A stretch of DNA of 19,427 nucleotides from a virus, in the UHGV virus genome UHGV-0123532; one strand, written 5' to 3'. Both the position numbers and the translations under genes were made by a program. Positions 1 to 17,809 of this stretch are shown here, piece after piece. Numbering within the stretch: position 1 is the first letter of the stretch; each line of letters opens with the position of its first letter. The notes under the pieces were generated by a model. The model made no database searches. It saw only the letters and a program-made list of their open reading frames with translations, and was not told the DNA's origin.

Positions 1-31
1 CTATGATTGGTTAGTAATAGAGTGTATCGGT

Positions 32-313
32 ATGCGATGTGGTTTATTAATGGCAATCTGCCTTTGTTTAGTATCTTTTAGCGGATATGCAGCAACAGGA
101 AAGTCTGATGCTCAGATCAAAAAAGAAATAATTAAAGAATCCATTGAATCTTATCCAGGCAATTGTGCGTGTCCTTATAATCATGCAAGGAATGGTAGTA
201 GATGTGGTGGACGCAGTGCATATAGCCGTAATGGAGGGTATGACGTGGTATGTTATGAGGGTGATGTTACCGATGAAATGATCCGGCAATGGAAGCAGGA
301 GAATGCTGAGTAA
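32..313 (+). CDS. hypothetical small secreted Cys-rich protein (93 aa; alternative start at 50)
   Basis: ORF from track; hydrophobic N-terminal segment (LLMAICLCLVSFSGYAA) followed by a polar region with 5 Cys; AT-rich compared with the prophage backbone; no family recognised by eye. Confidence 0.4.
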   Translation: MRCGLLMAICLCLVSFSGYAATGKSDAQIKKEIIKESIESYPGNCACPYNHARNGSRCGGRSAYSRNGGYDVVCYEGDVTDEMIRQWKQENAE

Positions 314-390
314 TCTCTTTTAACAGGTTTGTTGTGCGAGCATTATGTGCCGTTAACGGTACACTAGCTAGTGATAGTTCCAAAAAGAAA

Positions 391-423
391 ACCCGCAGTT
401 CTTACGCTGCGGGTTTGTTGTTC
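391..423. terminator. bidirectional intrinsic-terminator-like hairpin
   Basis: Stem acccgcag (391-398) pairs with ctgcgggt (407-414), 8-nt loop; A-run 381-390 upstream and T-rich 415-423 downstream, so it can terminate the plus-strand small ORF and the minus-strand hok transcript. Confidence 0.45.
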
Positions 424-501
424 ATGTCTGTGAGATAGGGTGCCACTTCAGCCAACCTTAGCAACCGATTGACGGGGGATTGCTCCCCCGTCGCGGTTTC
501 C

Positions 502-642
502 TTACTGCTTACACTGTAAGAACGCCGCAAACTCCGCTCCCCAGAAGCTCATCCGTATTTCACACAGCGAACCGTGTAGCATCCAGATGATGAGGATTAC
601 CGTCACGCAGAACGTGATGGCCGTAAGCGATTTTTGCGACAT
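502..642 (-). CDS. hok: Hok/Gef-family type I toxin, 46 aa (MSQKSLTAITFCVTVILIIWMLHGSLCEIRMSFWGAEFAAFLQCKQ)
   Basis: Hand-translated minus-strand ORF (below the 60-aa cutoff of the track); ATG at 640-642 preceded by AAGGAG; single TM helix plus conserved SLCE and AAFL-CK motifs, collinear with HokA-type toxins as remembered. Confidence 0.7.
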   Translation of the reverse strand: MSQKSLTAITFCVTVILIIWMLHGSLCEIRMSFWGAEFAAFLQCKQ

Positions 643-671
643 AGCGCTTGCTCCTTTGTTGGAGAGGCGCT
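643..671 (-). promoter_or_regulatory. stem-loop in the hok leader that pairs the Shine-Dalgarno with an upstream anti-SD
   Basis: Minus-strand RNA AGCGC-CUCUCC-AACAAA-GGAG-CAAGCGCU-AUG: outer arms agcgc/gcgcu and inner CUCC/GGAG are complementary; this matches the known translational control logic of hok mRNAs. Confidence 0.4.
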
Positions 672-833
672 AACCTATCACTTGCTTAAGGTAGATATGT
701 TAGGGCCTCGGTTAAACAGAAATGTTTTCCGGGGCCTTTCCACATCTGGCCTTCGGGTATTCCCTCCGACCATCAGCCGAAAGGCACCCGCGCGTAATCT
801 ATCGCTTTTTTGTTACTCCGGCAATTCTGCCTG

Positions 834-1094
834 TTAATTCTGAGGTAAAGGCAAACTCATCTGATTGTTTCCCCTGTGTGAAGCTGGCAGCTCATGCCAC
901 GGGATACCTTCTGAAGAGTGAACGCCGGAGGTGTGTTTTGATGTGAATTTATGGAAAGCTTCCAGTGTTGAGAAGCATACGCCGCATTCCAGGTTGTTAC
1001 ACTGGTAATACTTTTGCCGCACGGTGTTTGAATCATTTTCCGGACGACTGGTGCGGATACGGGCAGATGCGCCACAAAGCGGACAACGGAACAT
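834..1094 (-). CDS. ogr: Ogr/Delta-family zinc-finger late transcription activator
   Basis: MFRCPLCG...YYQCNNLECGVCF has the CxxC...CxxxxC pattern and resembles P2 Ogr (MFHCPLCQH...YHQCQNVNCSATF); RBS AAGGGAGG 6 nt upstream; lies directly downstream of D as in P2. Confidence 0.8.
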   Translation of the reverse strand: MFRCPLCGASARIRTSRPENDSNTVRQKYYQCNNLECGVCFSTLEAFHKFTSKHTSGVHSSEGIPWHELPASHRGNNQMSLPLPQN

Positions 1095-1136
1095 AGCGAC
1101 CTCCCTTAACGTTGTGCTGCTGCTATTCTAAGTTGC

Positions 1137-2246
1137 TCACTCTGTTTCTGCTATCCATTCCGGGATTTTTGCCTCAAGCTCAAGCTGCGTGGTAAAGCCG
1201 CTGTTATCGATGGTGTGCTCGGCTTTTGCAATAATCCAGTCCTGATTATCAATCTCGCTTTTAAATCCTGTTACCGTGCCATGCATTTCGGGGTAGAGTT
1301 CTGCACGACCACATGCCAGCGTGATGGAGAATGATGCGGCTCCGCGTTGTAGCTGCTGCCACTTTGCCGCCGCTGCGCGTCTTGCTGCCTGCTCGTTCTG
1401 ATAAGTCTTGCGTAACACAAACACATTGCCTTCCGCGCCTTCCATATAATCACCTTCGCGGCTGCTGCTTTTCTCCTTTTTGGGTTTTGGCGGTTTGCGG
1501 TGTTTCACGCTGACTTTTTTCTTTTTCCCGTAATTAAGATCAAGCCAGTAAGCGCGTACCCCCGTATACGCTTCGCGGTCAGCAATGCGGAACTGATGGC
1601 GATCGCCACTGCTGCGCGTGATGGCGAACGATGGCAACGGCTGGCCCTGTGCGTTCACGCCACCGCCTGGCATAATGAATAACAGATTACCGCTTTTTAC
1701 CGTGGTGATTGCGCCCAGCATTTCCGCCATGCGCGTAAGGAAGGACATGTCGCTTTCTTCGGTCTGGTCGGCGTGGTCGATTTCGATATCCATCAGCATT
1801 TCGCTGATTTGCGGTTTCAGACCATACCGATGAGCGATGGCGGATACCACACGCTCAACGGTCACATCATGCCAGGACACCTCACGTTTAACGTTAAATT
1901 CATCCCGAAAATCTGCGCTTCTGGCTGAAACAGTCAGCCTGTCCGGCGGTCCTTCGTGAGCGATTTCATCAACAATGTAAGTGCCTTTTTCTGTCAGCGG
2001 TTCTCCTTTCCAGCCAATGAGAACCGTCAGGCGCGCGCCCCGTGGCGGTAGCTGCAACTGACCATCCGCATCATCCAGCGTGATGGTGAGCTGGTCCGCG
2101 TCAAATCCCCGGTTGTCGGTCAGTGACAGGCTCATCAGGCGCTCTGCCACGCCTGACAGCGTTTTACCCTCCGCGAGAATATCAAAATCCGGCATTTTCA
2201 CGGGGTCTGTGCCCTGACTGAGCAATTGCATGGTGGTATCGGTCAT
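1137..2246 (-). CDS. D: P2 gpD-like tail protein (late gene D), about 370 aa
   Basis: Long ORF from track; start chosen at internal ATG 2244-2246 (MTDTTMQLL...) with GGAGGG RBS; identity by resemblance to remembered P2 gpD and by synteny with ogr. Confidence 0.8.
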   Translation of the reverse strand: MTDTTMQLLSQGTDPVKMPDFDILAEGKTLSGVAERLMSLSLTDNRGFDADQLTITLDDADGQLQLPPRGARLTVLIGWKGEPLTEKGTYIVDEIAHEGPPDRLTVSARSADFRDEFNVKREVSWHDVTVERVVSAIAHRYGLKPQISEMLMDIEIDHADQTEESDMSFLTRMAEMLGAITTVKSGNLLFIMPGGGVNAQGQPLPSFAITRSSGDRHQFRIADREAYTGVRAYWLDLNYGKKKKVSVKHRKPPKPKKEKSSSREGDYMEGAEGNVFVLRKTYQNEQAARRAAAAKWQQLQRGAASFSITLACGRAELYPEMHGTVTGFKSEIDNQDWIIAKAEHTIDNSGFTTQLELEAKIPEWIAETE

Positions 2247-2403
2247 CTGTTCCCTCCCTGTGCGGCATGGTCGCATGTGCGTGCGGAGGGGGTTACTGCT
2301 TTTTGTTGTCGCCGGATCGGGAGAACGGCACAGGGGTGAGATTACGCGCGTGGTGGGTGATGATTGTTGCCGAATCATTTAACGGATACAAGGGGCTAAA
2401 GCT

Positions 2404-3291
2404 ATGAGTGAAACTCGTTTTCATGGTGCCCGTGTTACGGAAAATACCGACCTGGTAACAGCGATTAACGATGTTGATTCCAGCGTTATCGGTATCGTGG
2501 CAACGGCGGATGATGCGGACGCGAAGCTGTTCCCGCTGAACAAGCCCACACTGCTGACCCGCGTCAATGACGTGCTGGGAAAATGCAGGACAACGGGGAC
2601 GCTTTATCGTGCGCTTAAGGCCATCGCAGACCAGGTGAGCACAAAGGTGATCGTCGTTCGCGTGGCTGAACACAAAGAAGAAGACGGAAAGACGCAGGAT
2701 CAACTGGTTATCGGTGGTTCTGAATCTGACGGCAGCTATACGGGGATGTATGCGCTGCTTGTTGCAGAGCAGGATGAAAGCATCGGATACCGTCCGCGTA
2801 TTCTGGCCGCGCCGGAGCTGGACACGGAGGCGGTGACAAAATCCCTGTGCGTGATTGCGGGTAAACTGCGCGCGTTTGTGTATGCCTCATGTCACGGCTG
2901 TAACACGATGGCTGAGGTGATTACCTACCGCCAGAAATTCAACGAACGTGAGGTGATGCTCTTATGGCCGGACTTCATCGCCTACAACCCGAAAAGTGGC
3001 AAAAACGAAACGTTCCCCGCGCCTGCCTATGCGTGCGGCCTTCGTGCGTACATTGACCATGAGCAGGGATGGCACAAATCACTGTCCAACGTTCCGGTTA
3101 AAAATGTGCTGGGGATGTCCAGGCATGTGTTCTGGTCGTTGCAGGCCGAAGACAGCGATGCCAACAGCCTCAACAACAAAGAAATCACGACCATTATTCG
3201 TCGCAACGGGTTCCGCTTCTGGGGCAACCGCACACCGGAAACGAACGCCTACATCTTTGAGGTGTATGCCGGAACATCGGCCAGCGTCTGA
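2404..3291 (+). pseudogene. FI: tail sheath protein FI, C-terminally truncated fragment (295 aa of about 396)
   Basis: Clear collinear similarity to P2 FI (TFPLNKP, LRAF-Y, WPDF-A, EQGWHK-LSNV, LIRR-GFRFWGNRT) ending near P2 residue 300; on the opposite strand to D/L/M/N and converging with the L-like ORF. Confidence 0.75.
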
Positions 3292-3608
3292 TGGCCAGCC
3301 GCCTGCTGTTCCTGCTGCCACGCTTCCAGTTCGCGGGTAACGTGAGCCACGGCCCCAGTGGCGGTATGCAGCAGGCGGGAGGTGGTCACGCGGCCCGGCA
3401 GTCGTACCGCCAGACGCAGCTCGCGCAGCACAATATCCGGCCAGAATGCACCTGCTGAAATGCGAGTGTCGCCATCATCGGTATCGGTGATGTCGTCCTC
3501 TGCGGGTCCTGGTTCAGTTCTGGCAACCATACTCATGGAGTTCACTCCTGAAAAAAAATCGGGCGGTGGGTGCGCGGTGTAAACGGTCACGGAGTCAAAC
3601 CGGAACAC
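3249..3608 (-). pseudogene. putative truncated head completion protein (gpL-like), GTG start
   Basis: Assigned only by position (starts 31 bp after the M stop, as L follows M in P2); its last ~14 codons (3249-3291) are antisense to the FI fragment, so the native reading frame is probably cut at the junction; P2 L is about 169 aa. Confidence 0.3.
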
Positions 3609-3639
3609 CGCGCACGCCGCCCGCTGACGGGGTCAGTCG

Positions 3640-4440
3640 TTAACCGCGCTTCGCCTTCTGCGACGCGGTGGTTTTTCGTGTTGCAGGCTTCTGCGTTGTC
3701 TTTTTACTTTTGCTGCTTTCGTCCTGCGTCTGCTGTGCGCTGGCGTCTTCTGGTGCGGCTGCGGAATCGGCTTTTTTCAGGGCGCGGGAAAGGGTTGCAA
3801 TCTCGCGTTTCACACCTGCGTTCGGGTTCAGGTGCATCGCTTCGCGCAGCAGCTTCAGTGATGAGGCCATGTTGTCTGCATCGGTCAGGCCACGACGGGC
3901 AAAGGCACACGCCTTGCATAATTTGGCGCGCACTTCGTCCGGCATGTCCTGGTTGGCGACAATTTCCCAAAGTGTGTCCAGTGGTTCGATAAAGGCGGAT
4001 AAATCCGCGTCGGCATCCGTCCCGGCCTGCGTCAGTACCGGGTTGCAGATTTCTTCGGTCAGTACCGTGGCAGCAGTACGGCCAAAGTTATCCGGCATGA
4101 TGAGGTTGTGACGGACCACATATGCACCAATACGCAGCGCCAGCGGAAGATCGCCGCAGTCAATCGCCCACACCATCAGCGTGGCAATTACTTCGTCCTG
4201 TTGCCCGCCGTCAGTCTCCAGCGTTCCCTCAATCCAGCCGGAAAAGTCCGGCAACAACTCTTTTTTGATGGCGGCTTTCGCGCTTCTGGCCTGTACGCCC
4301 TTTAGCCTGGCCTGTGCCAGACGCAGACGATACAGCACCTCTTCATGCGCGGTACGCGCGGCGTGGTCCACACCTTCATTCGCCCGGCCTGCGCGCTGTG
4401 CCATCACGTTCTGCCAGTGTTGTTGTGCAGGAGTAATCAT
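3640..4440 (-). CDS. M: terminase small (endonuclease) subunit, gpM-like
   Basis: 266-aa ORF with GGAGAG RBS; similar to remembered P2 gpM (PAQ-H, DMPDEVRAKL, basic Lys/Arg-rich tail); synteny N-M. Confidence 0.8.
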   Translation of the reverse strand: MITPAQQHWQNVMAQRAGRANEGVDHAARTAHEEVLYRLRLAQARLKGVQARSAKAAIKKELLPDFSGWIEGTLETDGGQQDEVIATLMVWAIDCGDLPLALRIGAYVVRHNLIMPDNFGRTAATVLTEEICNPVLTQAGTDADADLSAFIEPLDTLWEIVANQDMPDEVRAKLCKACAFARRGLTDADNMASSLKLLREAMHLNPNAGVKREIATLSRALKKADSAAAPEDASAQQTQDESSKSKKTTQKPATRKTTASQKAKRG

Positions 4441-4457
4441 TTTTTCTCTCCGTTACA

Positions 4458-4476
4458 GGCGGGCATGATGCCCGCC
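4458..4476. other. perfect palindrome/hairpin between N and M (ggcgggcat-g-atgcccgcc)
   Basis: Seen directly; GC-rich 9-bp arms; no U-tract on the minus strand, so more likely an mRNA processing or stability element than a strong terminator. Confidence 0.35.
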
Positions 4477-4485
4477 GTGAGTTGA

Positions 4486-5538
4486 TTAGCTGTCGGCGAA
4501 CTTCAGGCCAGTGATCATCGCGCACTTGCCATAGTCTTCAACGACATAAGCGTCATTGATGGACTGGTAGGTGGCGATGCGGTTGTATTCCGGCTCGTCT
4601 TTCATCAGGCGACGCATTGAACCTTTCTGCCAGTAAATCGACAGGTTGTTGAACGAGGTGATAAGCATCGTTGCATCCGGGAAGAACGGCGCAAGGAACA
4701 CGCCCAGCCCGCCAATGGTGCGCGATGACAGGATGAGCTGCCCGGCAAGTAATTCCGCATTGGGATTCTGGCCGCTGATGCTGTTCAGCACGGGCAGACG
4801 CAGCGAGTTAAACAGGTTGCGCCCCATAATCACCGCGAGGTCGTCAGCTTCCTTGTGCCATTCATCCAGCAGGGATGAGCGCGCATCCTGTACCAGAGCA
4901 TCGGCATTCGCATACTTACCCGCGTGCGCCACAGTGTTGTCCATGTTGCGGGAGGTCAGCGTCACGTCATTCATTACGCGCTCGCTGGCATCGGTTCTGA
5001 TGTGCTCCAGCCAGCCCACGTTAACGTCCTGAAGCAGCTTGTTGGTGTGAAAATCAGACTCGTAGGCGTGGGATGTGCCGTTAAAGCCAATCATGATGCG
5101 ATCAAGCGCTACCTGCCGGGCGATCTGTGTACTGATACGGGACTGAAAATCGCTGTGGGCCGCCCAGGTATCAAGCTGTGGGTACGAAATAAAGGTATCG
5201 TAGTTCACCTGTTCGCACTGGTACTGACGAGACTTCATATCGATCACGTTATTCGGGTTACGGCGTTTGATGCCGTCATAACTGCTATTCGTGCGCGCAA
5301 TTGGCCCGGTGGTGTCCAGGAGGATTTTTTCGCCTTTCTGGTCGGTCACGCCGATCACGTTAATTCTTTTCGTAAATTCGGTACTTTCCTTTGAGGCGTT
5401 TTCAAAACGCTGCTGCACCGCGGGTTCCACGGTAAATCGCGATACCAGTGCAGATACCGGGATATTGTTAAGCGACGCCTGCTGCGCCATATAGCAACCC
5501 AGCTTGTTGCGGGTAATATCTGACATCACCAGATTCAT
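4486..5538 (-). CDS. N: major capsid protein, gpN-like
   Basis: 350-aa ORF; AGGAG RBS 10 nt before ATG at 5536-5538; collinear similarity to P2 gpN (FTVEP, IGFNG, GWL, LSIYW, YVVEDY). Confidence 0.9.
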   Translation of the reverse strand: MNLVMSDITRNKLGCYMAQQASLNNIPVSALVSRFTVEPAVQQRFENASKESTEFTKRINVIGVTDQKGEKILLDTTGPIARTNSSYDGIKRRNPNNVIDMKSRQYQCEQVNYDTFISYPQLDTWAAHSDFQSRISTQIARQVALDRIMIGFNGTSHAYESDFHTNKLLQDVNVGWLEHIRTDASERVMNDVTLTSRNMDNTVAHAGKYANADALVQDARSSLLDEWHKEADDLAVIMGRNLFNSLRLPVLNSISGQNPNAELLAGQLILSSRTIGGLGVFLAPFFPDATMLITSFNNLSIYWQKGSMRRLMKDEPEYNRIATYQSINDAYVVEDYGKCAMITGLKFADS

Positions 5539-5561
5539 AAAAAATTTGCTCCTTTGTCTTA

Positions 5562-5938
5562 TCAGAAGTCAGCCAGCTGGTCGGAGGCTGCGCCCGTTGC
5601 GGTGAAGCGGTTCTGCGGATCGCCGTCCTGTGTGCGCAGTTTTTCCTTCAATGCTGTCAGCTCTGTGGTCAGTGACGTGATTTTCTGGCGGTCCTGCTGA
5701 TGGCGGGTTCCGTAATATCTTCCGTACTCAGCGCGGTGACATCGCCCATTGCGGAAAATTCGCTTGACGGGCATGGCGAGAGATAGTGCTCAACGTTCAC
5801 GCGGGCAGCGTAAACATCCGGGTTGAAGTTCTCGGCGGCTTCACGCAGATGTACCTGGCTGATTTCGCGGCCATCAACAGTTGATCCGGAGACAGCCACG
5901 CGAAACTTTTTGCGGGATGTCTTTTTTTCATTAGCCAT
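5562..5938 (-). pseudogene. O: capsid scaffold gpO-like, internally deleted and frameshifted
   Basis: N-terminal piece (MANEKKTSRKKFRVAVSGSTVDGREISQVHLREAAENFNPDVYAARVNVEHY..GDV) in one frame and C-terminal piece (TELTALKEKL...ATGAASDQLADF) in another; total locus about 377 bp against about 855 bp for P2 O. Confidence 0.6.
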
Positions 5939-6092
5939 AGTTTTTGCCCCTCTGACTGGTTCTTCAGTCATGATGGCAAAGCGTAACAGGCTGATAAAAA
6001 GGGCTTTTGTTGTAAGAAAACGGCCAGAACAGGGGGTTAAGGAGAACGGTTTCGCGCGCGGGTAATCTTCCTGTAATTACTCAGGGGGAGCA
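5939..6092. promoter_or_regulatory. divergent late-promoter region between O and P
   Basis: By synteny with P2 (divergent P and O operon promoters); no convincing TGT-N12-ACA Ogr dyad found by eye, so assigned by position only. Confidence 0.35.
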
Positions 6093-7844
6093 ATGATTCA
6101 GGACGCTTTTGTGCGCCAGCGTGCGCGGCAACTTTACTGGCAGGGTTATCCGCCCGCAGAAATATCACGTCTGATGGGAATAAACCCGAACACGATTTAT
6201 GCGTGGAAAAAACGCGACCAGTGGGATGAAACGCCACCCGTGCAGCGTGTCACGCAGTCCATCGATGCGCGCCTCATCCAGCTTACTGAAAAACAGAATA
6301 AAACAGGCGGTGACTTTAAGGAAATTGACCTGCTGACCCGGCAGCTTAAAAAAATGCATGATGGCCAGCCGGATGCGACGGCCACAGGAAAGAAAGGCCG
6401 GGCGAAAAAACTCAAAAATCATTTCACGCCGGAACAGATTGCCGCACTGCGGGAAAAAATCATCAGCAGGCTGGAGTGGCATCAGCGGGGCTGGTTTGAC
6501 TCCCTGACCCTTTGCAGGGAAGCCGGGATACGTAACAGGATGATCCTGAAATCCCGACAGATTGGCGCGACCTGGTATTTTGCACAGGAAGCACTGCTGA
6601 TGGCGCTGCGTGACGATGTGGCGCAACCTTACCAGCGTAACCAGATTTTTTTGTCTGCGTCGCGTCGTCAGGCGTTCCAGTTTAAAAGCATTATTCAGAA
6701 GGCTGCGGCTGAAGTTGATGTGGAGCTGAAAGGGGGCGATAAAATCATCCTCTCCAACGGCGCAGAGCTGCATTTTCTCGGCACTTCTGCTGCGTCGGCG
6801 CAGTCCTATACGGGCAATTTTTATTTTGATGAATTTTTCTGGGTCAGTCGCTTTGCTGAACTGCGCAAGGTGGCTGGCGCTATGGCAACCCTCAGCGGAT
6901 TGCGGCGCACCTACTTCTCCACGCCATCCACCGAAACGCACGAAGCATACGCCTACTGGAACGGCGACCGCTGGAACGAGAAAAAGGCCACACATAAACG
7001 CCAGCGTTTTTCTGTGGACTGGAAAACACTGCATAACGGGCTTATCTGCCCTGACCGGACGTGGCGGCAAATTGTCACGCTGGAAGATGTGGTTAATCAC
7101 GGCTGGAAACACACCGATATCGACGAAATTCGTGATGAAAACACCGAAGACGAGTTCCTCAATCTCTATATGTGTGAGTTTGTCCGCGAAGGGGAATCGG
7201 CATTTAACCTGAATATCCTGATTGGCTGCGGTGTTGACGGATACGACGACTGGAAAGACTGGAAACCTTTTGCTCCCCGCCCGATGGGGAATCGTCCGGT
7301 ATGGATTGGGTATGACGCAAACGGCAGCAGTGGCAACGGCGACAGCGGCGCTGTGTCCGTGGTGGTTCCTCCGGCTGTTCCTGGTGGCCGTTTTCGAACG
7401 GTGGAGACGCGACGCGTTCAGGGGCTGGAGTTTGAAGAACAGGCCAGAGTCATTGAAGATTTCACGTATCGCTACAACGTGGAACACATCGGCATTGATG
7501 TGACGGGCGGGAACGGGGAGGCTGTTTATCAGATAGTGAAACGGTTTTTCCCTGCCGCTATTCCGTACACCTTCACGCTGTCATCAAAACGGTCGCTTGT
7601 ACTGAAAATGCTGCAAATAATGCGTGCCGGGCGGTGGGAATACGATCGCGCCGAACGCGAGCTGGTCGCGGCCTTTAACGCCGTGCGTAAGGTGAAAACA
7701 CCGGGCGGCTTTATCACTTACGAAACGGACCGCGCGAGGGGGATCAGCCACGGCGACCTTGCGTGGGCAACCATGCTTGCTGTCATTAACGAACCAATTG
7801 GCGGCGAAGGAGAAAACGAGCGTTTCACGGTTATGGAGTTCTGA
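6093..7844 (+). CDS. P: terminase large (ATPase) subunit, gpP-like
   Basis: 583-aa ORF, length and position match P2 gpP; stop overlaps the Q start (TGATG at 7842-7846). Confidence 0.85.
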   Translation: MIQDAFVRQRARQLYWQGYPPAEISRLMGINPNTIYAWKKRDQWDETPPVQRVTQSIDARLIQLTEKQNKTGGDFKEIDLLTRQLKKMHDGQPDATATGKKGRAKKLKNHFTPEQIAALREKIISRLEWHQRGWFDSLTLCREAGIRNRMILKSRQIGATWYFAQEALLMALRDDVAQPYQRNQIFLSASRRQAFQFKSIIQKAAAEVDVELKGGDKIILSNGAELHFLGTSAASAQSYTGNFYFDEFFWVSRFAELRKVAGAMATLSGLRRTYFSTPSTETHEAYAYWNGDRWNEKKATHKRQRFSVDWKTLHNGLICPDRTWRQIVTLEDVVNHGWKHTDIDEIRDENTEDEFLNLYMCEFVREGESAFNLNILIGCGVDGYDDWKDWKPFAPRPMGNRPVWIGYDANGSSGNGDSGAVSVVVPPAVPGGRFRTVETRRVQGLEFEEQARVIEDFTYRYNVEHIGIDVTGGNGEAVYQIVKRFFPAAIPYTFTLSSKRSLVLKMLQIMRAGRWEYDRAERELVAAFNAVRKVKTPGGFITYETDRARGISHGDLAWATMLAVINEPIGGEGENERFTVMEF

Positions 7845-8890
7845 TGAGCAGAAAAAATAAAAAAGTGCGCATGAGTTCACGCATTGATCTCGCTGATGCA
7901 CTCAGGAAAGAATCGTCGCTCAGTGCATTCACTTTTGATGGTCCTTATCGCCTGACCGGGCATGATTTGCTGGACAATATGTACTGTGCTGATAACGGGC
8001 GGTGGTATGAAACCCCGGTGGACTGGTACGGTCTGGCAAGAGCCGCCCGGCAAACGTCCTGGCATCAGTCTGCGCTTTACTTTAAGCGCAATGTATTGCT
8101 CGGTTGCTACATCCCGCACCCGCTGCTTTCCCGGCAGGATTTCTCGGCACTGGCGCTGGACTGGTTTGTGTTCGGTAACGCATTCCTTGAGCTTCGAAGC
8201 AATATGCTCGGCGAACCGCTTAAATTACGGCACGCCCTGGCGAAATACATACGACGCGGAAGCGATCTTGAATCATGGTGGTATGTGCAGGATGGCAAGG
8301 ATGCGTTCCAGTTTCGCCCTGGCAAAGTGTGCCACCTGATGAATCCTGACATTAACCAGGAAATCTACGGCATGCCGGAATATCTCGGCGCATTACTCTC
8401 GGCCAGCCTGTCTCATTCGGCGGACATGTTCAGAAAACTGTATTACGACAACGGATCCCACGCCGGGTGCATCATCTACATCGGTGCAGCGCAGGTAAAC
8501 CGCGAAAGCATGGACTCTCTGAAAGAAACGCTACAGGGTGCACGTGGTGGCGGTGCGTTTAAAAACGTGCTCATTCATGCGCCCAACGGGGGCAAAGAGG
8601 GGGTGCAAATTTTGCCGTTCCAGCAGATCACCGCAAAGGATGAGTTCATGAATGTTAAGGCGGCATCCCGTGATGATGTGCTGGCTGCGCACCGCGTTCC
8701 GCCGCAACTAATGGGGGCGATGCCGGGTGAAAAAAGTGCGTTTGGTGATGTGGAGAAGGCCGCGCGGGTTTACGCAATTAACGAGCTGATGCCCATCATG
8801 GAGGCCATGAAGCACATCAATGACTGGCTTGGCGAAGAGGTGATCCGCTTTAACCCTTACGCACTGTTAGATACCCAGCTCACATCCTGA
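7844..8890 (+). CDS. Q: portal (capsid vertex) protein, gpQ-like
   Basis: 348-aa ORF translationally coupled to P; length and position match P2 gpQ. Confidence 0.85.
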   Translation: MSRKNKKVRMSSRIDLADALRKESSLSAFTFDGPYRLTGHDLLDNMYCADNGRWYETPVDWYGLARAARQTSWHQSALYFKRNVLLGCYIPHPLLSRQDFSALALDWFVFGNAFLELRSNMLGEPLKLRHALAKYIRRGSDLESWWYVQDGKDAFQFRPGKVCHLMNPDINQEIYGMPEYLGALLSASLSHSADMFRKLYYDNGSHAGCIIYIGAAQVNRESMDSLKETLQGARGGGAFKNVLIHAPNGGKEGVQILPFQQITAKDEFMNVKAASRDDVLAAHRVPPQLMGAMPGEKSAFGDVEKAARVYAINELMPIMEAMKHINDWLGEEVIRFNPYALLDTQLTS

Positions 8891-8917
8891 CGCGCTTCGC
8901 TTGTCTGCTGCTTCGCC

Positions 8918-8940
8918 GGGGCATAAAAAATTTATGCCCC
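8918..8940. terminator. hairpin downstream of Q (ggggcataaa-aaa-tttatgcccc)
   Basis: Perfect 10-bp stem with 3-nt loop starting 28 bp after the Q stop; no clean U-tract, so a weak or factor-assisted terminator. Confidence 0.4.
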
Positions 8941-9220
8941 GACTCTCCAGCTCCTGTATCAGTCAGATAATTTCACGACGCTTTACAGTATATCGCCACC
9001 ATCGACGGTCAGACTCTTACGCAATCCCACCGCGTTGACTGCATGTTCTTCGCCGCCTCAGTGCGATTTTGACGGCCTTACCTTTCACCCCATCAAATCA
9101 GAATCCCTCACGTATTTTTCACGCTCAGCGTGAGAAATACAGCCATTCTGTTGTGTCTCTGCGACATCGTTCAGGGAATGCTATTTACCCCCTGAAACGC
9201 GGGCTGTTCCCCCGTCACCT

Positions 9221-9272
9221 GCGCGCAGAAAAAACGCGTTTTTTTGTGCATGCACGGATCCTTGACGGATCC
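9221..9272. repeat. dense cluster of short palindromes
   Basis: GCGCGC (9221-9226), AAAAAACGCGTTTTTT (9229-9244), GTGCATGCAC (9246-9255), GGATCC twice (9256-9261, 9267-9272), all seen directly. Confidence 0.6.
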
Positions 9273-9315
9273 AGCCGCCACGCGGGCCGGAAGGGTAAAA
9301 AGTCGTTCAAAAAAA

Positions 9316-9345
9316 TTGTGCAAATTTGTGCACTATTGTGCAAAC
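9316..9345. repeat. three tandem copies of TTGTGCA at exact 10-bp period
   Basis: tTGTGCAaat / tTGTGCActa / tTGTGCAaac at 9316, 9326, 9336; helical-turn phasing suggests a protein-binding array. Confidence 0.55.
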
Positions 9346-9581
9346 CGAACGGAGTGCTTATTTATAGAAAAATTGAGCCTATGTATACGACGTTGCTTAT
9401 AAATACATCCCTGACTGTTATGTGAAAATATGCAAAGAAAATTACATGCTATGGAGATGAGAGTTATAACGACCTTTTCTACTTATTTGTAAAAGAGGTC
9501 GTTATGTAAAAGTTAAATTATTTTTTACTCTTGATATGTGTAAAAAATATAGCTTTGATGTTTATATCCTATTAGAATATA

Positions 9582-11279
9582 TTATTTATCCTCTTTAATG
9601 ATTTTGTTATAGTCAAAATCCCAAATTTTTCTGTCAATGCCGTTTGTTGGTGTAACCCGGTAGAATAAGGATCGTAATCCATTGTAAAAATACTGGAGAG
9701 ATTTCTGATTTTCTGGTTTGTCTAACCAGTTTCTTGTAATCATTCTAAAGAATTCAATATGCTGATTGAATATTTTCTTATTTAATTTTCTTCTTAAACC
9801 GGATGTAGACTCATGGTTGTCTTTTCTTTTCTGAATTTCAGTTTCAATTGATTGTAATTGAGGACGTATCTTGAGTAAGTATAACTCTTTCGAAAAACCA
9901 TTGTTAATTATATCCTGATTTTCCCAGAAGGAAGAGTCGTCGGTATTATAAAGGTGCTCACAATGCTCAAATATCAATTGTTCTGGAGCTTTTTCACCCG
10001 GCAGTGATATAATTCCTCTCTGATCCTCAGGGCTGTGATCTCCATCAAGAATACAAATTGATTTTAACGAGGTTTCCTTAAGATGAGAATCATTAAAAAT
10101 AGTTTTTAAATTGTCTGCACCAATGAAACAATCAATTAAGTGAAATGAATTACTAACTATAGCAAAATTTGGATATTTGCTTATCCAATAACCAAGTATT
10201 TCATTAAATAAAAAGCGAGCTTCTTCATCTTCCGTGAAAACTGGTATCTTGTTCCTTGTGTATATCTCATCCTTTGTTTGTGTTTTCAGATACATTGTTA
10301 TTTTTAATATATCAGGATTATCCAAAAGCAGAGCCTTTGTAATATTGTTAATTAGATAGACAACATGGTATTTTTTATGAAAAGCATATTCTAGCAATGT
10401 CAGACTGTGCGTTGTGAAAAATACTTGAATCTTATAATCTTTTGCGTATTGATAAATTTTATCTAATAATCTTATCTGTAAAGAAGGATGTAAAGTGGCA
10501 TCAAATTCATCTATTAACAGAATGCTTTCTTTTTGATCAGTGGATTGAATAAGTGATTCAAAATAATACCTAAGGCTAACTAATGCCTTGATTATAATGA
10601 ATATATTGTCTTCCCCGGATGATATGGTATTAGAATCAATTGCTGGGTTATCGGTATCAAATAATGGGCCAGCTTTAAAATCTCCGATATTGTTTGATTC
10701 TATATTTATAATATTAATGCCCAAAAGTTCATTATATATTTTCGATATATAACCAACATACTCTTCTGGTAGGTTTAACGGAATTTTTGTAAGGGCGTCG
10801 TCTTTAGTTTCACCAATTGGGAATAGTCGCGATAATCCAAGATATAAAACTGGTTTAGCTGGAAGTGATTGTTTTTCTTTTCCGCGTGGGTATACTGGTT
10901 TGATAGCATACCGTTGCGCTTCGTCTGGATTTTTTGAGTTGTGCTTTCTGAAGTCTAGTGTGCTATGATCCAAATAGTTAATAGAAAATAACACACCTTT
11001 TGTTCCCTCTGCCGGATCGGTGTAATTTTTTGATTCCCTAACAATTGCTTCCATTTTGGGGTTGGCTATTTTGTTTATAGATTTTATAACTCTAACACAA
11101 TTACTATTTGAATAATTTTGTGATCGAGATGGTGGCATTTGGAAACCATTGCTAATTAAATGAAGCAATGTTGTCTTACATGTCCCATTGGTTCCTGATA
11201 TTATATTGATGTCTTCATTGAATGAGAAGTCAATATCTATCAGTTTCTTAAATTTTTTAAAACTAATTTCTTTAATCAT
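9582..11279 (-). CDS. OLD-family ABC-type ATPase with C-terminal Toprim-like nuclease region (565 aa)
   Basis: N-terminal P-loop SGTNGTCKTTLL; Walker B/D-loop LLIDEFDATLHP and H-loop FFTTHS typical of AAA_15/AAA_21 OLD-like ATPases; downstream conserved acidic motifs VFTEDEE and ILDGDHS spaced like the Toprim Glu and DxD; AGGA RBS; AT-rich. Confidence 0.6.
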   Translation of the reverse strand: MIKEISFKKFKKLIDIDFSFNEDINIISGTNGTCKTTLLHLISNGFQMPPSRSQNYSNSNCVRVIKSINKIANPKMEAIVRESKNYTDPAEGTKGVLFSINYLDHSTLDFRKHNSKNPDEAQRYAIKPVYPRGKEKQSLPAKPVLYLGLSRLFPIGETKDDALTKIPLNLPEEYVGYISKIYNELLGINIINIESNNIGDFKAGPLFDTDNPAIDSNTISSGEDNIFIIIKALVSLRYYFESLIQSTDQKESILLIDEFDATLHPSLQIRLLDKIYQYAKDYKIQVFFTTHSLTLLEYAFHKKYHVVYLINNITKALLLDNPDILKITMYLKTQTKDEIYTRNKIPVFTEDEEARFLFNEILGYWISKYPNFAIVSNSFHLIDCFIGADNLKTIFNDSHLKETSLKSICILDGDHSPEDQRGIISLPGEKAPEQLIFEHCEHLYNTDDSSFWENQDIINNGFSKELYLLKIRPQLQSIETEIQKRKDNHESTSGLRRKLNKKIFNQHIEFFRMITRNWLDKPENQKSLQYFYNGLRSLFYRVTPTNGIDRKIWDFDYNKIIKEDK

Positions 11280-11296
11280 CTATATCATCCTTAAAT

Positions 11297-12142
11297 TTAA
11301 ATGTCAGGGATTTTTATACCATGATTATAAATGATAATTTCTAGACCTTTTTTCTTATCTTGTGCAGTATAATTAAGCGTATAATCAGTCATATTGAATT
11401 CATGATATATGCTTTTTATTTCAGGCACATTGTCATAAGACACAACCCAAGGTAGTTGAATTTCCCGTAGTGTATTAGCGATTTTTACATGATCATCATG
11501 TTTATAAAAATTTCTATATAACTCTGCTCCTTTAACATAATAAGGTGGATCAAGATATATTAGACTATTTTGGGGTAGCAATGCTTTTTGGTGTAGCAGA
11601 AAATCTACAGCATCAAAATTCGATACGTAAATTTTCTCCTTATATGCACCAATTAGTTCAATCCTTTTAATTAACTCTTTTTTGTTGAATCTTGCATCTA
11701 ACTTCCATGGTCCTTTTTGTTCTTTCCCTCCAATAACGCCAGCCTTAAGTATTCCTGAACGGTTTGTTCTATTTAAAAAGAAAGTAGATAATGCGACTTC
11801 AAGCATACTATATTTATCATTGTTTAGGAGTATCTCCTTTTGAGTATGCCAATTTTCAATAGTCACAGGAACTTCATCAATCATTTCACATAACAGATCG
11901 TTATGATTAACCACTGCAAACCAAAAAGAATAAAGGGCAGGATCAATATCATTTATGAAGATATTTTCAACAAGACCGTTAAGGAGCAAACCTAATGCTA
12001 CACCGGCTCCACCTGCATAAGGTTCAGCATAACATCCACCAATGAGATCATTGTTGCGGAGTATTTGTTCAATATGTGGCAAGAATTTTGCCTTACCTCC
12101 CGGATAACGAAGAGGGGTTCTAAAATGAGAAGGCTTTGTCAT
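11297..12142 (-). CDS. Dam-like (D12 class) N6-adenine DNA methyltransferase (281 aa)
   Basis: LRYPGGK N-terminal motif, AdoMet motif EPYAGGAGV, catalytic DPPY; stop lies 17 bp upstream of the ATPase start, same strand. Confidence 0.85.
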   Translation of the reverse strand: MTKPSHFRTPLRYPGGKAKFLPHIEQILRNNDLIGGCYAEPYAGGAGVALGLLLNGLVENIFINDIDPALYSFWFAVVNHNDLLCEMIDEVPVTIENWHTQKEILLNNDKYSMLEVALSTFFLNRTNRSGILKAGVIGGKEQKGPWKLDARFNKKELIKRIELIGAYKEKIYVSNFDAVDFLLHQKALLPQNSLIYLDPPYYVKGAELYRNFYKHDDHVKIANTLREIQLPWVVSYDNVPEIKSIYHEFNMTDYTLNYTAQDKKKGLEIIIYNHGIKIPDI

Positions 12143-12229
12143 CCACGATTTTCTCAGTAAAAAATAAACATAATCTTAACATGGCACTTGAGTTTTCCCG
12201 ATAAAAAACATCGTCGCCGTCCATAGATA

Positions 12230-12247
12230 TTTGCATAGTTATGCAAA
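12230..12247 (-). promoter_or_regulatory. inverted repeat TTTGCATA-gt-TATGCAAA in the leader of the methyltransferase operon
   Basis: Perfect 8-bp arms seen directly; located between the predicted promoter and the MTase start, an operator-like or 5' UTR hairpin position. Confidence 0.4.
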
Positions 12248-12275
12248 AAATCCAGTTTTCAATGAATTAAGGGGA

Positions 12276-12305
12276 ATTATATCAATTGCATTCTATTCAA
12301 CACAA
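12276..12305 (-). promoter_or_regulatory. candidate sigma70 promoter for the MTase-OLD operon
   Basis: Minus strand TTGTGT-N18-TATAAT (perfect -10 at 12276-12281, -35 at 12300-12305), immediately after the gene A stop. Confidence 0.35.
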
Positions 12306-12327
12306 TATTCGGTTAGCGATTCACATC

Positions 12328-15153
12328 TCATCCCTCATGATGGAAAAGGCATATCCAACTTTGTAATTGTTTTTTCTCATCATCATTTTGATTACTAAAG
12401 TGCTGTTTGCCTCTCTTTTGGAGCAAAGTAGCCTTGCGGCGGGCGCGTTCAGTGGTTTCATTGATTCTTTGTGCGTGCTCTGCGTCACGGATGGCGCGCA
12501 GCATGTCAGAAAGCACGGTAACGGGGGTTTTCATGGTGTTCTGGTCCTGCTGAAGTGTGGATGCCAGACGTGCGGCGGCTTCGGGGTCTGATGCCCCCAG
12601 TTGTTCCAGATAGCTGGCGACCGGGTTATGACGGATCTCTGTGCTGCTTACGCCGTGATTACGGCTCAGGCGCTGCCAGAGCTGCGTAATTCGGCTGGCC
12701 GGGCGGGTATCCGGTTTGCGTACAATTTCAAATCCCTGCGGTGCAATGATGCTGCCGTCAACGTACAGGCTGCCGCCCCGTAACAGGTGCTGCATCTGCT
12801 GTTCACCGATATGCAGGCCGAGAGATTCGGCAGATTCCCGCCATTCTTTAGCGAGTAATTCGTGGTTATCAGGCAAAGGCCGCTGCTGTTTGCGGCTCTG
12901 TGTCCAGCTCTGCATTTCATCACTGCTGTTTTTTGCCTGTTTGTCACGAAGCGAACGCATCAGCGCCCGGCGTTCGTGCCGTTTCAGTGAGCGCATCCAT
13001 TCGTTCACTTCAACGCCGTCAGGAAGCTGCGGCCACGGTGCTGGCCGTTCTTTCGACTGTTCTGTCCCGCTGTTGCCTGTTTCCTGTACACGGGGACAGT
13101 TATTGCCACGAGTCCAAGGGGCGGCAGGGCCGCCCTGAAGGTCAAAACCATTTTCGCGGGCGCTGTCTTCCGCTTCCGGTTTGCGTCTTACCAGCTTCCA
13201 GTTATCCGGATGCGTGCACACACGGGAGGATTCCCCGATGAGTGGTGACCAGATCCCGTAAATCTGTACGCTCTGTTCGCCGTAATCGTTCAGCTCATCG
13301 GCGAGGTCGTAGGCGGTGCGAATCAGGTAGTCTTTGCGTGGAACAAGTACGCCGCCCTGTTTCTCAATGTAGGTGGCAAAACATCCGGCATCAGCGGCAG
13401 CAAGAACCGCATCCATTGCGTCATCCTTCAGCCGTTGCGGGCCTTCCGGGTTGCGTGCCATCTGGCTGGCAAGGCGACGCAGTTCACGCCACACCTGACG
13501 GGAGGGGATGCCAAAGAACTGGAACTGGCGGACCCGGTGAAGGCGCGCCCAGCCAATGGCGCGTTCCACGCTCTCGGTCATTGATTTTCCGGTTTCGTGG
13601 TCAACGCGTGGTTTGCCTGTTTTCGGGTCGATGCCATCCACGGCGCGGCTGTCCAGGTTTTTTCCGATGTAGGTGGCGATGTAGCTGGTTGGCGTGCCTT
13701 TTGAGCCGTCGACATACTCCGCCTTAAAGCGCGGAGTAATATCATCGCCCAGCTCGTGACGATCTTCCTGAATGGCAATATCGCGGGTGTGGGACACAAT
13801 GGTGTCGATTTCTTCCGGATGAGCAAAGACCATCATATGCCAGTGCACGGTGCCGTCATGGTGAGGCTCCACCGTGCGGATGCCATACCAGCGCAGGCCG
13901 TCGCGGTTCAGTTTCTTGCGGACCGCCGCAAAAAACGTGTTAACCAGGTAATCGCTGGAGTCGCGCATGGTGGCCCCGTTCCATTTGGGATTCGGATGAC
14001 CGTTCTCTGTTGTAGCGTGGTATTTTGACGGGCAGGTGACAGTCAGAAACACCGCTTTGTCGCCACGGGCTTCGGCCAGAAGTTCCAGCCCCTTCATGGT
14101 GGCCATCATTTCTGCCTTACGGTGAACCGGGTTACTTACTCCCGCGTAATACACTGTCTCGAGATCAATCGTGAACCCGTCTTCGTTTTCCAGCATGAAA
14201 CTTTTCAGGAAATCGCGTGTTTTCTCGCGCTGTGCGCGAAACTCGCTTAACGCGTCCTGGCTCAGATAGGGCGATGTTTTTCTGGAAACCAGACAGGCGG
14301 CGCGGAGTTGTTCTTCTCTCCACTCGCAACGTAACAGCCACAGTTTGCGTTTCCACCATTCCGCACAGGTCAGGCGAAGGATTGCGCCCGGCAGCAGCTC
14401 CGTGTCCGGTTCGTTCCTCCGGTCTTTGTCTGTTGTCAGTGCGTCATAATGTGGAGGCATGGCGTGCAGGTGTAACGCCATGCGGGCCAGCATCTGATAC
14501 GCCTTCAGCGTTACATCCATGGTCAGTTCGCCATCGGTCGCGCCAAAGCCATCGCAGAGTTTTTCGAAGGTGCTGCTGAACATCGCCGCCGTCATGGTGG
14601 CCAGCGTCTGTATCTGGTGTTTGTTGAGCTGCGGCAGGTAAAGCAAATCGTCCAGGCGTTCGCGTCCGGCAAGGGAGCGATAACCCTGTGTCAGCCAGCG
14701 GTGATCGGTGCGCTCCAGACGTTCGAATATTTTGCGCAGGTTTCCGCGCGCGTAGCGTTCAGCCTGCCAGCTCTTTTTGCCTTTCTGACGATCGGCTTCC
14801 TGTTTTTTGCGCAGGAAGGAGAGGTGGCGAATAAGCGGATCGCGCAGATAGGACGGCAGCAGGCGCAGCGAGGCCATGGCTTCATCCACCGCACCGCGTG
14901 CCTGTTTTCTGGCGTCTCCTGCCAGTGTGATGGTTTTGTCCTGTTTTTCCTGTGCGTCCAGGCTTTTATTAATCAGGTTGCCCAGCGGCGTTGCGGAGAA
15001 CGCCGCATCAGCCATTTCCTGGCGGCGCTCGTTCTCTACCCGGTAGGCATCCAGCCAGGAGGAAAGCGCGGATTCAGGAGCGGGGATCCCCGTTCCTTCA
15101 CGCCCCACTGCGTGGCGCGGTTGTTGCCAGTCCCTGATGTACTCTGCCGTCAT
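12328..15153 (-). CDS. A: replication initiation endonuclease, gpA-like (rolling-circle HUH type), 941 aa
   Basis: HUH-type motif TVHWHMMVF and paired tyrosines YIATYIGK characteristic of P2 A-family proteins; position after the early operon. Confidence 0.85.
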   Translation of the reverse strand: MTAEYIRDWQQPRHAVGREGTGIPAPESALSSWLDAYRVENERRQEMADAAFSATPLGNLINKSLDAQEKQDKTITLAGDARKQARGAVDEAMASLRLLPSYLRDPLIRHLSFLRKKQEADRQKGKKSWQAERYARGNLRKIFERLERTDHRWLTQGYRSLAGRERLDDLLYLPQLNKHQIQTLATMTAAMFSSTFEKLCDGFGATDGELTMDVTLKAYQMLARMALHLHAMPPHYDALTTDKDRRNEPDTELLPGAILRLTCAEWWKRKLWLLRCEWREEQLRAACLVSRKTSPYLSQDALSEFRAQREKTRDFLKSFMLENEDGFTIDLETVYYAGVSNPVHRKAEMMATMKGLELLAEARGDKAVFLTVTCPSKYHATTENGHPNPKWNGATMRDSSDYLVNTFFAAVRKKLNRDGLRWYGIRTVEPHHDGTVHWHMMVFAHPEEIDTIVSHTRDIAIQEDRHELGDDITPRFKAEYVDGSKGTPTSYIATYIGKNLDSRAVDGIDPKTGKPRVDHETGKSMTESVERAIGWARLHRVRQFQFFGIPSRQVWRELRRLASQMARNPEGPQRLKDDAMDAVLAAADAGCFATYIEKQGGVLVPRKDYLIRTAYDLADELNDYGEQSVQIYGIWSPLIGESSRVCTHPDNWKLVRRKPEAEDSARENGFDLQGGPAAPWTRGNNCPRVQETGNSGTEQSKERPAPWPQLPDGVEVNEWMRSLKRHERRALMRSLRDKQAKNSSDEMQSWTQSRKQQRPLPDNHELLAKEWRESAESLGLHIGEQQMQHLLRGGSLYVDGSIIAPQGFEIVRKPDTRPASRITQLWQRLSRNHGVSSTEIRHNPVASYLEQLGASDPEAAARLASTLQQDQNTMKTPVTVLSDMLRAIRDAEHAQRINETTERARRKATLLQKRGKQHFSNQNDDEKKQLQSWICLFHHEG

Positions 15154-15159
15154 AGTGAT

Positions 15160-15525: not shown

Positions 15526-15597
15526 TGCGGCAATCCTCTTGTTACAGATGTGCGAAGGCCTCCCGCCGCAAGGTGCAGGAAAGGCCCGGAACAGGAA

Positions 15598-15828: not shown

Positions 15829-15838
15829 GGTGTGGCCC

Positions 15839-16913: not shown

Positions 16914-16936
16914 TGCGCCCCCTTTGTCCAGTAACC

Positions 16937-17798: not shown

Positions 17799-17809
17799 CG
17801 CAACGCCCT

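Follow-up and report, generated by a model that had tools for sequence, protein, structure and literature searches.

The question raised by this locus is whether a small open reading frame (ORF) near the end of a prophage, next to the late-gene activator ogr, is part of a type I toxin-antitoxin system of the hok/sok kind, and whether it belongs to the phage or to the bacterial chromosome. The DNA analysed is a stretch of 19,427 nucleotides from a virus (UHGV virus genome UHGV-0123532, to be referred to as the window), and all positions given below are those of the window. An earlier note on this DNA had proposed a hok/sok-like type I toxin-antitoxin locus at positions 381–833. With a probability of roughly 85%, positions 385–824 represent a hok/sok-type type I system. 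It is the cargo of a P88-like (Xuanwuvirus, P2-like) E. coli prophage, integrated at the 3′ end of the tRNA gene leuZ, and occupies the interval from ogr to the attachment site. The proposed interval brackets the transcription unit well, from the −35 element of its putative promoter at 824 to the terminator at 385. The system is recognized by a Hok/Gef peptide, the tac/fbi pairing of the mRNA ends, a sequestered Shine-Dalgarno (SD) sequence, a 3′ hairpin, and a conserved, predicted Sok RNA.

The hok coding region is located at 502–642 on the (−) strand (46 codons and a stop codon), and its product is MSQKSLTAITFCVTVILIIWMLHGSLCEIRMSFWGAEFAAFLQCKQ. Residues 7–44 can be aligned to positions 5–42 of the 42 in the Pfam family HOK_GEF (PF01848), with a score of 30.1 bits (E 3.7e-7) against a curated gathering cut-off of 22 bits, so the similarity to the Hok family assumed in the earlier note is found on alignment. 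The peptide also matches PHROG 251 (phrog_251, E 2.5e-23), and RefSeq annotates the ORF on identical DNA as 'Hok/Gef family protein' (WP_000078920.1). Seven residues, M1, C16, T18, L30, C31, E32, and E41, are conserved at a level above 80% in a set of 1264 Hok peptides (10.1101/2025.08.07.668861). All seven are present in the window ORF, as M1, C12, T14, L26, C27, E28, and E37, and four of them (M1, C27, E28, and E37) are invariant among 25 members of its subfamily. Judged by the Pfam threshold and these seven residues, the toxin is a member of the Hok/Gef family. A hydrophobic stretch, L6–L22, can be read directly from the sequence, and toxicity is predicted from the family. BLASTP gives 34% identity to HokW over 35 amino acids (E 1e-7) and 27% identity to HokC over 33 amino acids (E 2e-5). 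No PADLOC model matches the peptide.

With the 46-aa protein as query, 68 relatives are found. They come from Escherichia, Shigella, Salmonella, and Klebsiella, and almost all have the same length of 46 amino acids. Related loci were sought with an alignment of 25 Hok homologues and drawn from genome contigs, IMG/VR, and exact-protein look-ups. Nearly all the hok loci from IMG/VR are at least 98% identical, and the diversity came from the contigs encoding the relatives. After removal of near-duplicates, 33 distinct mRNAs were aligned, with 61–96% identity to that of the window. An ORF of 46–47 codons is kept in all 33 of these loci, from Escherichia, Salmonella, Klebsiella, and Citrobacter. 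The median dN/dS of hok is 0.185 (332 pairs), by which measure the peptide is under purifying selection. Shortened Hok variants are present in some genomes. One relative (L103) has lost the promoter and tac.

The full-length hok mRNA is predicted to be about 405 nucleotides long (385–789 on the (−) strand), with G789 as its first nucleotide and its 3′ end just after the terminator; both ends were placed by analogy with hokC and hokW. The putative promoter appears to be of the sigma-70 type. Its −10 element, TAGATT (796–801), occurs as TAGATT, TAGAAT, TAGAGT, or TAAATT in 32 of the 33 relatives, always 6 nt ahead of the GGGTGCC at the start of the mRNA. The −35 element, TTGCCG (819–824), was read directly 17 nt upstream of the −10 element. 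It agrees with the consensus at four of six positions, which is under the threshold of the promoter scan, and TTG-type hexamers are found at the same place in most relatives. The intrinsic terminator that the earlier note had seen downstream of hok was picked up by the terminator scan at 389–416 on the (−) strand, with 10 base pairs followed by TTTTCTTTTT. It probably also ends the ogr transcript. Relatives in other contexts have different terminators after fbi, and the terminator of the window is therefore context-specific. An Rfam match to Leu_leader at 385–451 on the (−) strand (19.7 bits, E 0.39) merely reflects the terminator hairpin and was rejected.

The fold of the mRNA (789 to 385) has a minimum free energy of −178.1 kcal/mol (z = −8.1 against 100 shuffled sequences) and joins the 5′ end to the 3′ region. 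In this fold the first 15 nucleotides, tac (GGGUGCCUUUCGGCU, 775–789), are base-paired with fbi (GGCUGAAGUGGCACCC, 438–453). Eleven consensus pairs of the tac/fbi helix are 98–100% paired over the 33 loci, and four of them have compensatory changes. In tac columns 1–7 the pairing is never lost, and the changes lead to G-U pairs alone. Compensatory changes are present in 11 of the 33 sequences at each of columns 10–12, and in three sequences at column 13. The series in this extension runs from U-A to C-G, from C-G to G-C, and from G-C to A-U, in 11 sequences each. Single-base variants of fbi among the relatives (GGCGCCC, GGCACTC, and GGCATCC) can all still pair, by way of G-U. In a 3′-truncated RNA, tac is predicted to refold into a local hairpin at the 5′ end.

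The translation-initiation region of hok is closed by two further elements. As the earlier note had recognized, the SD sequence is buried in a stem-loop (642–672), where the anti-SD CUCC (661–664) is paired with GGAG (651–654) and the base of the stem takes in the A of the AUG. The outer stem (columns 123–127 with 147–151) is 99.4% paired, and sequestration is predicted in 32 of the 33 distinct relatives. The SD sequence is sequestered in the full-length and 3′-truncated folds alike. A downstream box, GCGGAGUUUGCGGCGU (522–537), in the codons for AEFAAF, pairs with the start-codon region (627–642) in a helix of 14 pairs (helix 8), with 99.8% of the cells paired. The nucleotides of these codons are nearly invariant because the downstream box pairs with the start-codon region.

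Beyond the stop codon, a GC-rich hairpin (470–493, helix 13) has compensatory changes in five of its nine pairs. It is presumed to be the barrier to exonucleolytic trimming from the 3′ end, a role taken over from plasmid R1 (PMC9841398); the terminator scan picked up its (+) strand. The leader segment complementary to the 5′ tail of Sok (684–690) pairs with 456–462 in the full-length mRNA (helix 6; columns 104–110 with 347–353), with compensatory changes in two of five pairs (7 and 8 sequences). In the 3′-truncated fold this segment is single-stranded, which would free the target of the Sok tail.

The same elements are found by RNAalifold from the 33 mRNAs, namely tac/fbi, 684–690 with 456–462, the SD hairpin, the start codon with the downstream box, and the post-stop hairpin. 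In this consensus structure 98.9% of the cells are paired over the 33 loci. Cells with changes on both sides number 87, compared to 27.3 ± 4.0 after shuffling, and none of 500 shuffles reaches the observed value. When the partners are slid by 1–3 columns, at most 44% of the cells are paired, a control that is lenient since the structure was derived from the same sequences. The fold and the covariation are far beyond chance, and the compensatory series in the tac/fbi extension, together with five pairs that covary in the hairpin past the stop codon, is direct evidence for the structure.

The Rfam model RF01794 ('sok') can be aligned in its entirety to 632–789 on the (−) strand, with a score of 47.9 bits (E 2.9e-9), which is under its gathering score of 59. 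As a control, the same model was applied to the validated loci, where it scores 118.3 bits at hokC and 113.5 bits at hokW. In both cases the match is on the hok-sense strand and extends between the 5′ end of the mRNA and the AUG. The model therefore describes the hok leader, and the window holds a divergent copy of it. The comparison with known chromosomal hok loci suggested in the earlier note yields a hokC leader recognized by the same model, next to the protein similarity given above.

The earlier note had mapped neither a Sok promoter nor a mok frame, and had pointed to the (+) strand as the place for an antisense promoter. A candidate Sok promoter is found there, with the −35 element TTGCTC at 648–653 and the −10 element TAACCT at 671–676. 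Among the 33 relatives, the −35 element is always TTGCTC, TTTACT, or TTGCCT, the −10 element is TAACCT in 29 and TATCCT in 4, and the spacer is exactly 17 nt in every one. The sokW promoter of phage 933W, TTGCCT-17-TAACCT, is in the same position, and the annotated sokW starts 7 nt past its −10 element, which would put the start of Sok in the window near 683–684. This conserved promoter would drive a predicted Sok RNA of about 60 nt (684–745 on the (+) strand) overlapping the hok leader, to which it is complementary at nt 45–106. The RNA would have a single-stranded 5′ tail, a hairpin at 702–738 with a GAAA loop, and a short, U-poor tail. Its ends were placed from the annotated sokC and sokW, with the 3′ end near 739–747. 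The promoter agrees with the sigma-70 consensus at only three of six positions in each hexamer. A sigma-70 scan of positions 1–1200 at default stringency found no promoter, neither that of hok nor that of Sok, and both promoters are therefore assigned from conservation in the relatives together with the annotated sokC and sokW, and are best regarded as putative. The terminator scan did not pick up a terminator for the predicted Sok, the U tract of which has three U residues.

The two strands of this region differ in stability. The (+) strand RNA (684–750) folds at −28.9 kcal/mol (z −4.5), compared to −22.3 kcal/mol for the sense strand. Three positions in the Sok stem are G-U pairs when read as antisense RNA, but A-C mismatches when read as sense RNA. 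In all 33 relatives, the antisense hairpin is the more stable of the two (mean −21.6 vs −13.6 kcal/mol), an asymmetry that selection on an antisense RNA predicts.

In plasmid R1, translation of mok up to the SD sequence of hok is mandatory for the translation of hok (PMC9841398; PMC4147584). The AUG of mok in R1 and in hokC is located 7–8 nt past a GAGG motif. This motif (709–706) is invariant in the window and its relatives, and the window continues with CCCUAACAUAUC. Where mok would canonically start, the window has AUAUC, and no relative has ATG, GTG, or TTG there. Neither the ORF listing nor three-frame maps of the window contain a mok frame reaching the SD sequence of hok; the reading frame that corresponds to mok is free of stop codons between 685 and 562 and has no start codon. 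In a survey of 51 distinct loci, no conserved mok was found. An ORF with an ATG, GTG, or TTG start reaches the hok SD in 16 of the 51, from six different starts. The upstream ORFs of these loci start at nt 3, 17, 45, 46, 100, or 113, their ends are spread over nt 77–284, and their frames change by 1-nt indels even between loci that are more than 95% identical. The annotation of mokC and mokW in their own loci serves as a positive control. An upstream ORF starting at AUG745 (19 codons in the window, with its stop at 688) gives a full, overlapping frame in E. albertii. It was rejected as mok, being missing in the members from Salmonella, Klebsiella, and Citrobacter and having a stop that varies in position between nt 77 and nt 284. 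By this survey, the canonical mok frame is missing across the whole subfamily, and its absence is no lesion peculiar to the copy in the window. Of the 'classic hok mRNA architecture' in the earlier note, the RNA structure is therefore borne out, but the translational coupling and the canonical mok frame are missing. Likewise, of the two items it had left unmapped, the candidate Sok promoter and the predicted RNA can now be placed at 648–745 on the (+) strand, but mok is absent.

The gene upstream of hok is ogr, which encodes a zinc-finger activator of the Ogr/Delta family (834–1094 on the (−) strand; Pfam Ogr_Delta, 52.4 bits). The end of the ogr ORF is 192 nt from the ATG of hok, in agreement with the distance of about 190 bp given earlier. 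In the fetched loci, ogr is directly upstream in 84 of 114 hok copies, with a spacing of 193–195 nt in 81 of the 84. Positions 382–1100 are 98.6% identical to phage P88 (Xuanwuvirus, Peduoviridae), which is reported to have been obtained as a phage by induction (PMC5285337), and 94–97% identical to the Peduoviridae or P2-like phages Chuche, Shae_phiSM, PhiR44_2, 500465-2, P884B11, and 520873. A Salmonella P2-like prophage beside ihfA-pheT has the gene order gpU-gpD-ogr-hok, with a Hok that is 61% identical, at a different integration site.

The end of the prophage was defined by comparison with E. coli K-12. Homology to K-12 stops at the 3′ETS-leuZ terminator, located 439 bp beyond the left end of the window, and resumes past the integrase, beside yecA. 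A direct repeat of 124 bp, consisting of the last 55 nt of leuZ and the 3′ETS, is present at both junctions, with the integrase at the far end. Both junctions are outside the window in this comparison, and the whole window is thus inside the prophage. The terminator of hok is about 0.8 kb from attL, and an ORF with its own PHROG (32–313) is located in between. The placement 'next to the prophage end' in the earlier note can therefore be refined, as the module is about 0.8 kb from that end, with a phage ORF between the two. A Pfam Sclerostin match of this ORF (18 bits against a cut-off of 27) was rejected as due to chance. The similarity to other phages breaks at 380–382, 428–430, or 438, just after the terminator or fbi. 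Together with the differing terminators, these breakpoints define a conserved module of about 438–824 in a variable slot. From these comparisons, hok/sok is phage cargo, and the variable slot that it occupies in leuZ-integrating P2-like phages extends from ogr to attL. The prophage that hosts the window copy has a deletion of about 15 kb, has lost tail genes, and is defective, so that selection on the module in this copy cannot be assumed.

The module is widespread. Positions 1–1100 are 100% identical to several E. coli chromosomes, and 385–830 is found in about 28% of the complete E. coli genomes (1545 of 5426), with up to seven copies per genome, and in 34 plasmid records. A copy with 83.6% identity is present in many Stx2a phages. 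Members of this Hok cluster are also located at lambdoid prophage ends, in tandem in Salmonella islands, and beside a TraI relaxase. A published survey of Hok, with mok and Sok outside its analysis, counts 3852 prophages and 2501 phages, with enrichment in prophages, and hok genes are not enriched near defence systems (10.1101/2025.08.07.668861).

A mechanism can be proposed by analogy with R1 hok/sok and with hokW-sokW (PMC9841398, PMC4147584, PMC8621323). The full-length mRNA would be stable and inert. Slow trimming from the 3′ end to the hairpin region would remove fbi, upon which the 5′ end would refold and expose the target of Sok. As long as the prophage is present and transcribed, the short-lived Sok would pair with the processed mRNA, and RNase III would destroy the duplex. 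Once Sok synthesis ends, by loss of the prophage DNA or by the shut-off of transcription by an infecting phage, the stored mRNA would give Hok, which would depolarize the inner membrane and kill the cell. Prophage retention through the killing of cured cells would be the role with about an even chance of being correct. Abortive-infection defence, as a further or an alternative role, is suggested more tentatively, and a third option is help with lysis, as reported for hokW-sokW.

As there is no conserved mok, the step in which Sok blocks mok and thereby the translation of hok cannot apply as such here. The simplest possible substitute for this coupling would be control by decay, with degradation of the duplex that Sok forms with the mRNA. 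In partition-function folding, the probability that the SD sequence is unpaired is 0.33 in the full-length mRNA, 0.35 in the truncated mRNA, and 0.33 in the truncated mRNA with the Sok target open, showing no opening of the SD sequence among these states. It is possible, at less than even odds, that the widespread 46-aa Hok cluster functions without a mok leader peptide. The action of Sok on Hok would then be limited to triggering the breakdown of the processed mRNA, or would involve a structural effect that equilibrium folding does not reveal.

Three other explanations of the locus have to be weighed against a hok/sok-type system carried by the phage. The earlier note had left open whether hok is chromosomal flank or cargo at the prophage edge. 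A place in the bacterial chromosome beside the attachment site might be suspected as hok lies beyond ogr, the last conserved P2-type gene, and as prophage calls in IMG/VR often end exactly at the hok stop codon. The module is nonetheless contained in the genomes of P88 and the six other phages above, K-12 homology ends to the left of the window and resumes only past the integrase, with the direct repeat at both junctions, and hok stays adjacent to ogr at the different site in Salmonella. The chromosomal half of the alternative is already refuted by the phage genomes and the K-12 comparison, with a negligible chance of being correct, and the cargo half stands. It is also conceivable, with a very low probability, that hok is an orphan toxin governed by the folding of its own mRNA, with the (+) strand signals as by-products of the hok leader and no antisense RNA. 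In its favor, the Sok promoter is a poor match to the consensus and is missed by the default scan, and the Sok terminator is weak, with three U residues. On the other hand, the hexamers and the exact 17-nt spacing are kept in all 33 relatives, with TAACCT and TATCCT as the only forms of the −10 element. The stem positions that pair only on the antisense strand, the greater stability of the antisense hairpin in every relative, and the matching hexamers ahead of the annotated sokW all argue for a genuine Sok.

The locus could also be an inactive relic, with RNA and ORF that look intact and a Hok that is untranslatable after the loss of mok, as in most chromosomal hok loci of K-12. This explanation is improbable, but it has more in its favor than the other two. 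A mok frame, mandatory in R1, is absent from the window and most relatives, the SD sequence and the AUG remain paired throughout the modelled states, the tail genes of the surrounding prophage are deleted, truncated Hok variants occur elsewhere, and one relative is without promoter and tac. The loss of mok belongs to the whole subfamily, however, and is not a lesion of this copy. Moreover, a relic does not account for the purifying selection on the peptide, for an ORF kept in all 33 loci, or for helices that are each maintained by compensatory changes. The Sok promoter is likewise kept in all 33, and an antitoxin is pointless without a toxin. Near-identical copies are present in the inducible P88 and in 28% of the complete E. 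coli genomes. A hok/sok-type system carried as phage cargo thus remains the preferred reading.

The locus in the window is an ordinary, already catalogued hok/sok module, unusual only in having no conserved mok frame. As a discovery it has small weight: the gene is annotated, its PHROG family exists, and the enrichment in prophages is published. Its value is in annotation, as RNA parts that were unannotated (Sok, tac/fbi, and the promoters) are mapped and the status of the module as cargo in a variable slot is established. That the 46-aa Hok cluster appears to be independent of mok is the one point that merits experimental work. If confirmed, this cluster would be a regulatory variant of hok/sok, for which the translation of mok is regarded as a requirement, and a convenient natural system for asking how an antitoxin that binds far upstream of the ribosome-binding site of the toxin can act without translational coupling.

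A detailed comparison can be made with four known systems. The hok/mok/sok (parB) locus of plasmid R1 was compared through its descriptions in PMC9841398 and PMC4147584. The two have in common a small membrane toxin of the Hok/Gef family, an mRNA of about 400 nt, its closure by tac/fbi, and a 3′ hairpin, which in the window is presumed to limit trimming. They also share a Sok of about 60 nt (predicted in the window) with a 5′ tail and one hairpin with a GAAA-type loop, a Sok promoter that overlaps the translation-initiation region of hok, and the GAGG of the leader. In comparison, Hok has 52 amino acids in R1 and 46 in the window, the window module is on a phage and not a plasmid, there is no mok start 7–8 nt past GAGG and no conserved overlapping frame, and the Rfam leader model scores under its gathering value (47.9 bits). 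Measured against the canonical hok/mok/sok type, the window locus therefore fails on mok and on the Rfam threshold, and otherwise fits all the RNA features that can be tested.

The hokC (gef)/mokC/sokC locus of E. coli K-12 has the same gene order and strand arrangement as the window. The annotated sokC is located 49–107 nt upstream of the hokC ATG, and the predicted Sok 42–103 nt upstream of that of hok. The leader of hokC is recognized by the same Rfam model with a far higher score (118 bits, vs 47.9 for the window), mokC (69 aa) is annotated at hokC whereas the window is without mok, and the two toxins are 27% identical over 33 amino acids. Moreover, hokC is a fixed chromosomal locus, unlike the phage cargo in the window.

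The hokW/mokW/sokW locus of the Stx2 phage 933W and of the Sakai prophage Sp5 is prophage-borne, as is the window module, and the Sok promoters are closely similar (TTGCCT-17-TAACCT for sokW, TTGCTC-17-TAACCT for the window). In Sp5, hokW-sokW has been established experimentally as a type I toxin-antitoxin system that aids phage release (PMC8621323). HokW belongs to a different cluster, with 51 amino acids, 34% identity to the Hok of the window, and an annotated mokW of 70 amino acids, and hokW is found in a lambdoid phage, away from ogr, whereas the hok of the window adjoins ogr. Phage records name the window gene 'MokW-like', but its identification as hokW was rejected, as the HokW of 933W differs, with 51 amino acids and its own mokW. 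The closest counterpart is SF19_gp52 of P88 and the same gene in other Xuanwuvirus and P2-like phages, which is essentially the module of the window in the same position after ogr. Database entries for this gene name the protein alone, as 'MokW-like host killing' or 'Hok/Gef family protein', and carry no annotation of Sok or of the elements of the mRNA that are described here.

The prophage in the window carries an internal deletion relative to its counterpart in E. coli AR_0013, from which it does not otherwise differ. Approximately 15 kb is missing; the window region concerned is 2404–3291, with the junction near position 3267. The segments on the two sides of the junction (1–3267 and 3267–19427) are each 100% identical to AR_0013, and they are non-contiguous in that genome. 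The tail-sheath ORF is shortened to 295 residues in the window, compared with 394 residues in AR_0013, and it directly adjoins the terminase-small and capsid genes. The prophage is therefore defective.

The att duplication of the prophage is a 124-bp repeat, formed by the last 55 nucleotides of the tRNA-Leu gene (leuZ) and the 3′ETS-leuZ sRNA region. Both copies are located outside the window, at 11439–11562 of the fetched locus L001 and at 4311–4434 of L114 (reverse complement). As the repeat includes the 3′ETS-leuZ region, lysogens have two copies of the sequence of this sponge RNA. Two further small RNAs have Rfam matches above the gathering score, both on the minus strand within the early region of the prophage: a C4 antisense RNA (15885–15972, 83.2 bits) and the Hfq-binding sRNA isrK (16008–16082, 61.9 bits).

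An accessory slot, with packaging genes on one side and a replication gene on the other, holds genes for an AAA ATPase (565 residues) followed by a DNA methyltransferase (281 residues), at 9582–12142 on the minus strand. In PADLOC, the methyltransferase matches PD-Lambda-5_B with an E value of 8.7e-122; for the ATPase, the matches are to models of the PtuA/AriA/GajA type, with values of about 1e-16. Judged from these models, the two genes look like a PD-lambda-5-like defence pair.

No minus-strand terminator is found between the stop codon of the late-gene activator ogr (834–836) and the predicted start of the hok mRNA (position 789), that is, within window positions 789–836. Transcripts of ogr should therefore run into hok and stop at its terminator (389–416), which should give rise to 5′-extended hok RNAs.

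Relatives of the 46-residue Hok toxin are also found in other contexts. Tandem pairs of these genes, about 490 bp apart, are present in Salmonella islands (L093, L094 and L097; 2501–3140), some of which have a YafO-family toxin gene beside the tandem copies. The copy in L103 (2501–2641) is located at a lambdoid prophage end adjoining fieF-pfkA. It is probably inactive, having lost its promoter and the tac element, the 5′ element of the end pairing of hok mRNA. Contigs that carry the labels Planococcaceae, Vagococcus and Xanthomonas pisi (L005, L006 and L009) contain identical or near-identical hok loci, which are most likely enterobacterial contamination in those assemblies.

A Cys-rich ORF of 93 residues (32–313, plus strand) is located between hok and attL, the left prophage junction. 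Its N-terminus is signal-peptide-like, and it matches phrog_27544 (function unknown) with an E value of 7e-58; the RefSeq label of its product is hypothetical. The ORF is a second, variable cargo gene besides hok, since the same slot holds another, different small ORF in phage P88.
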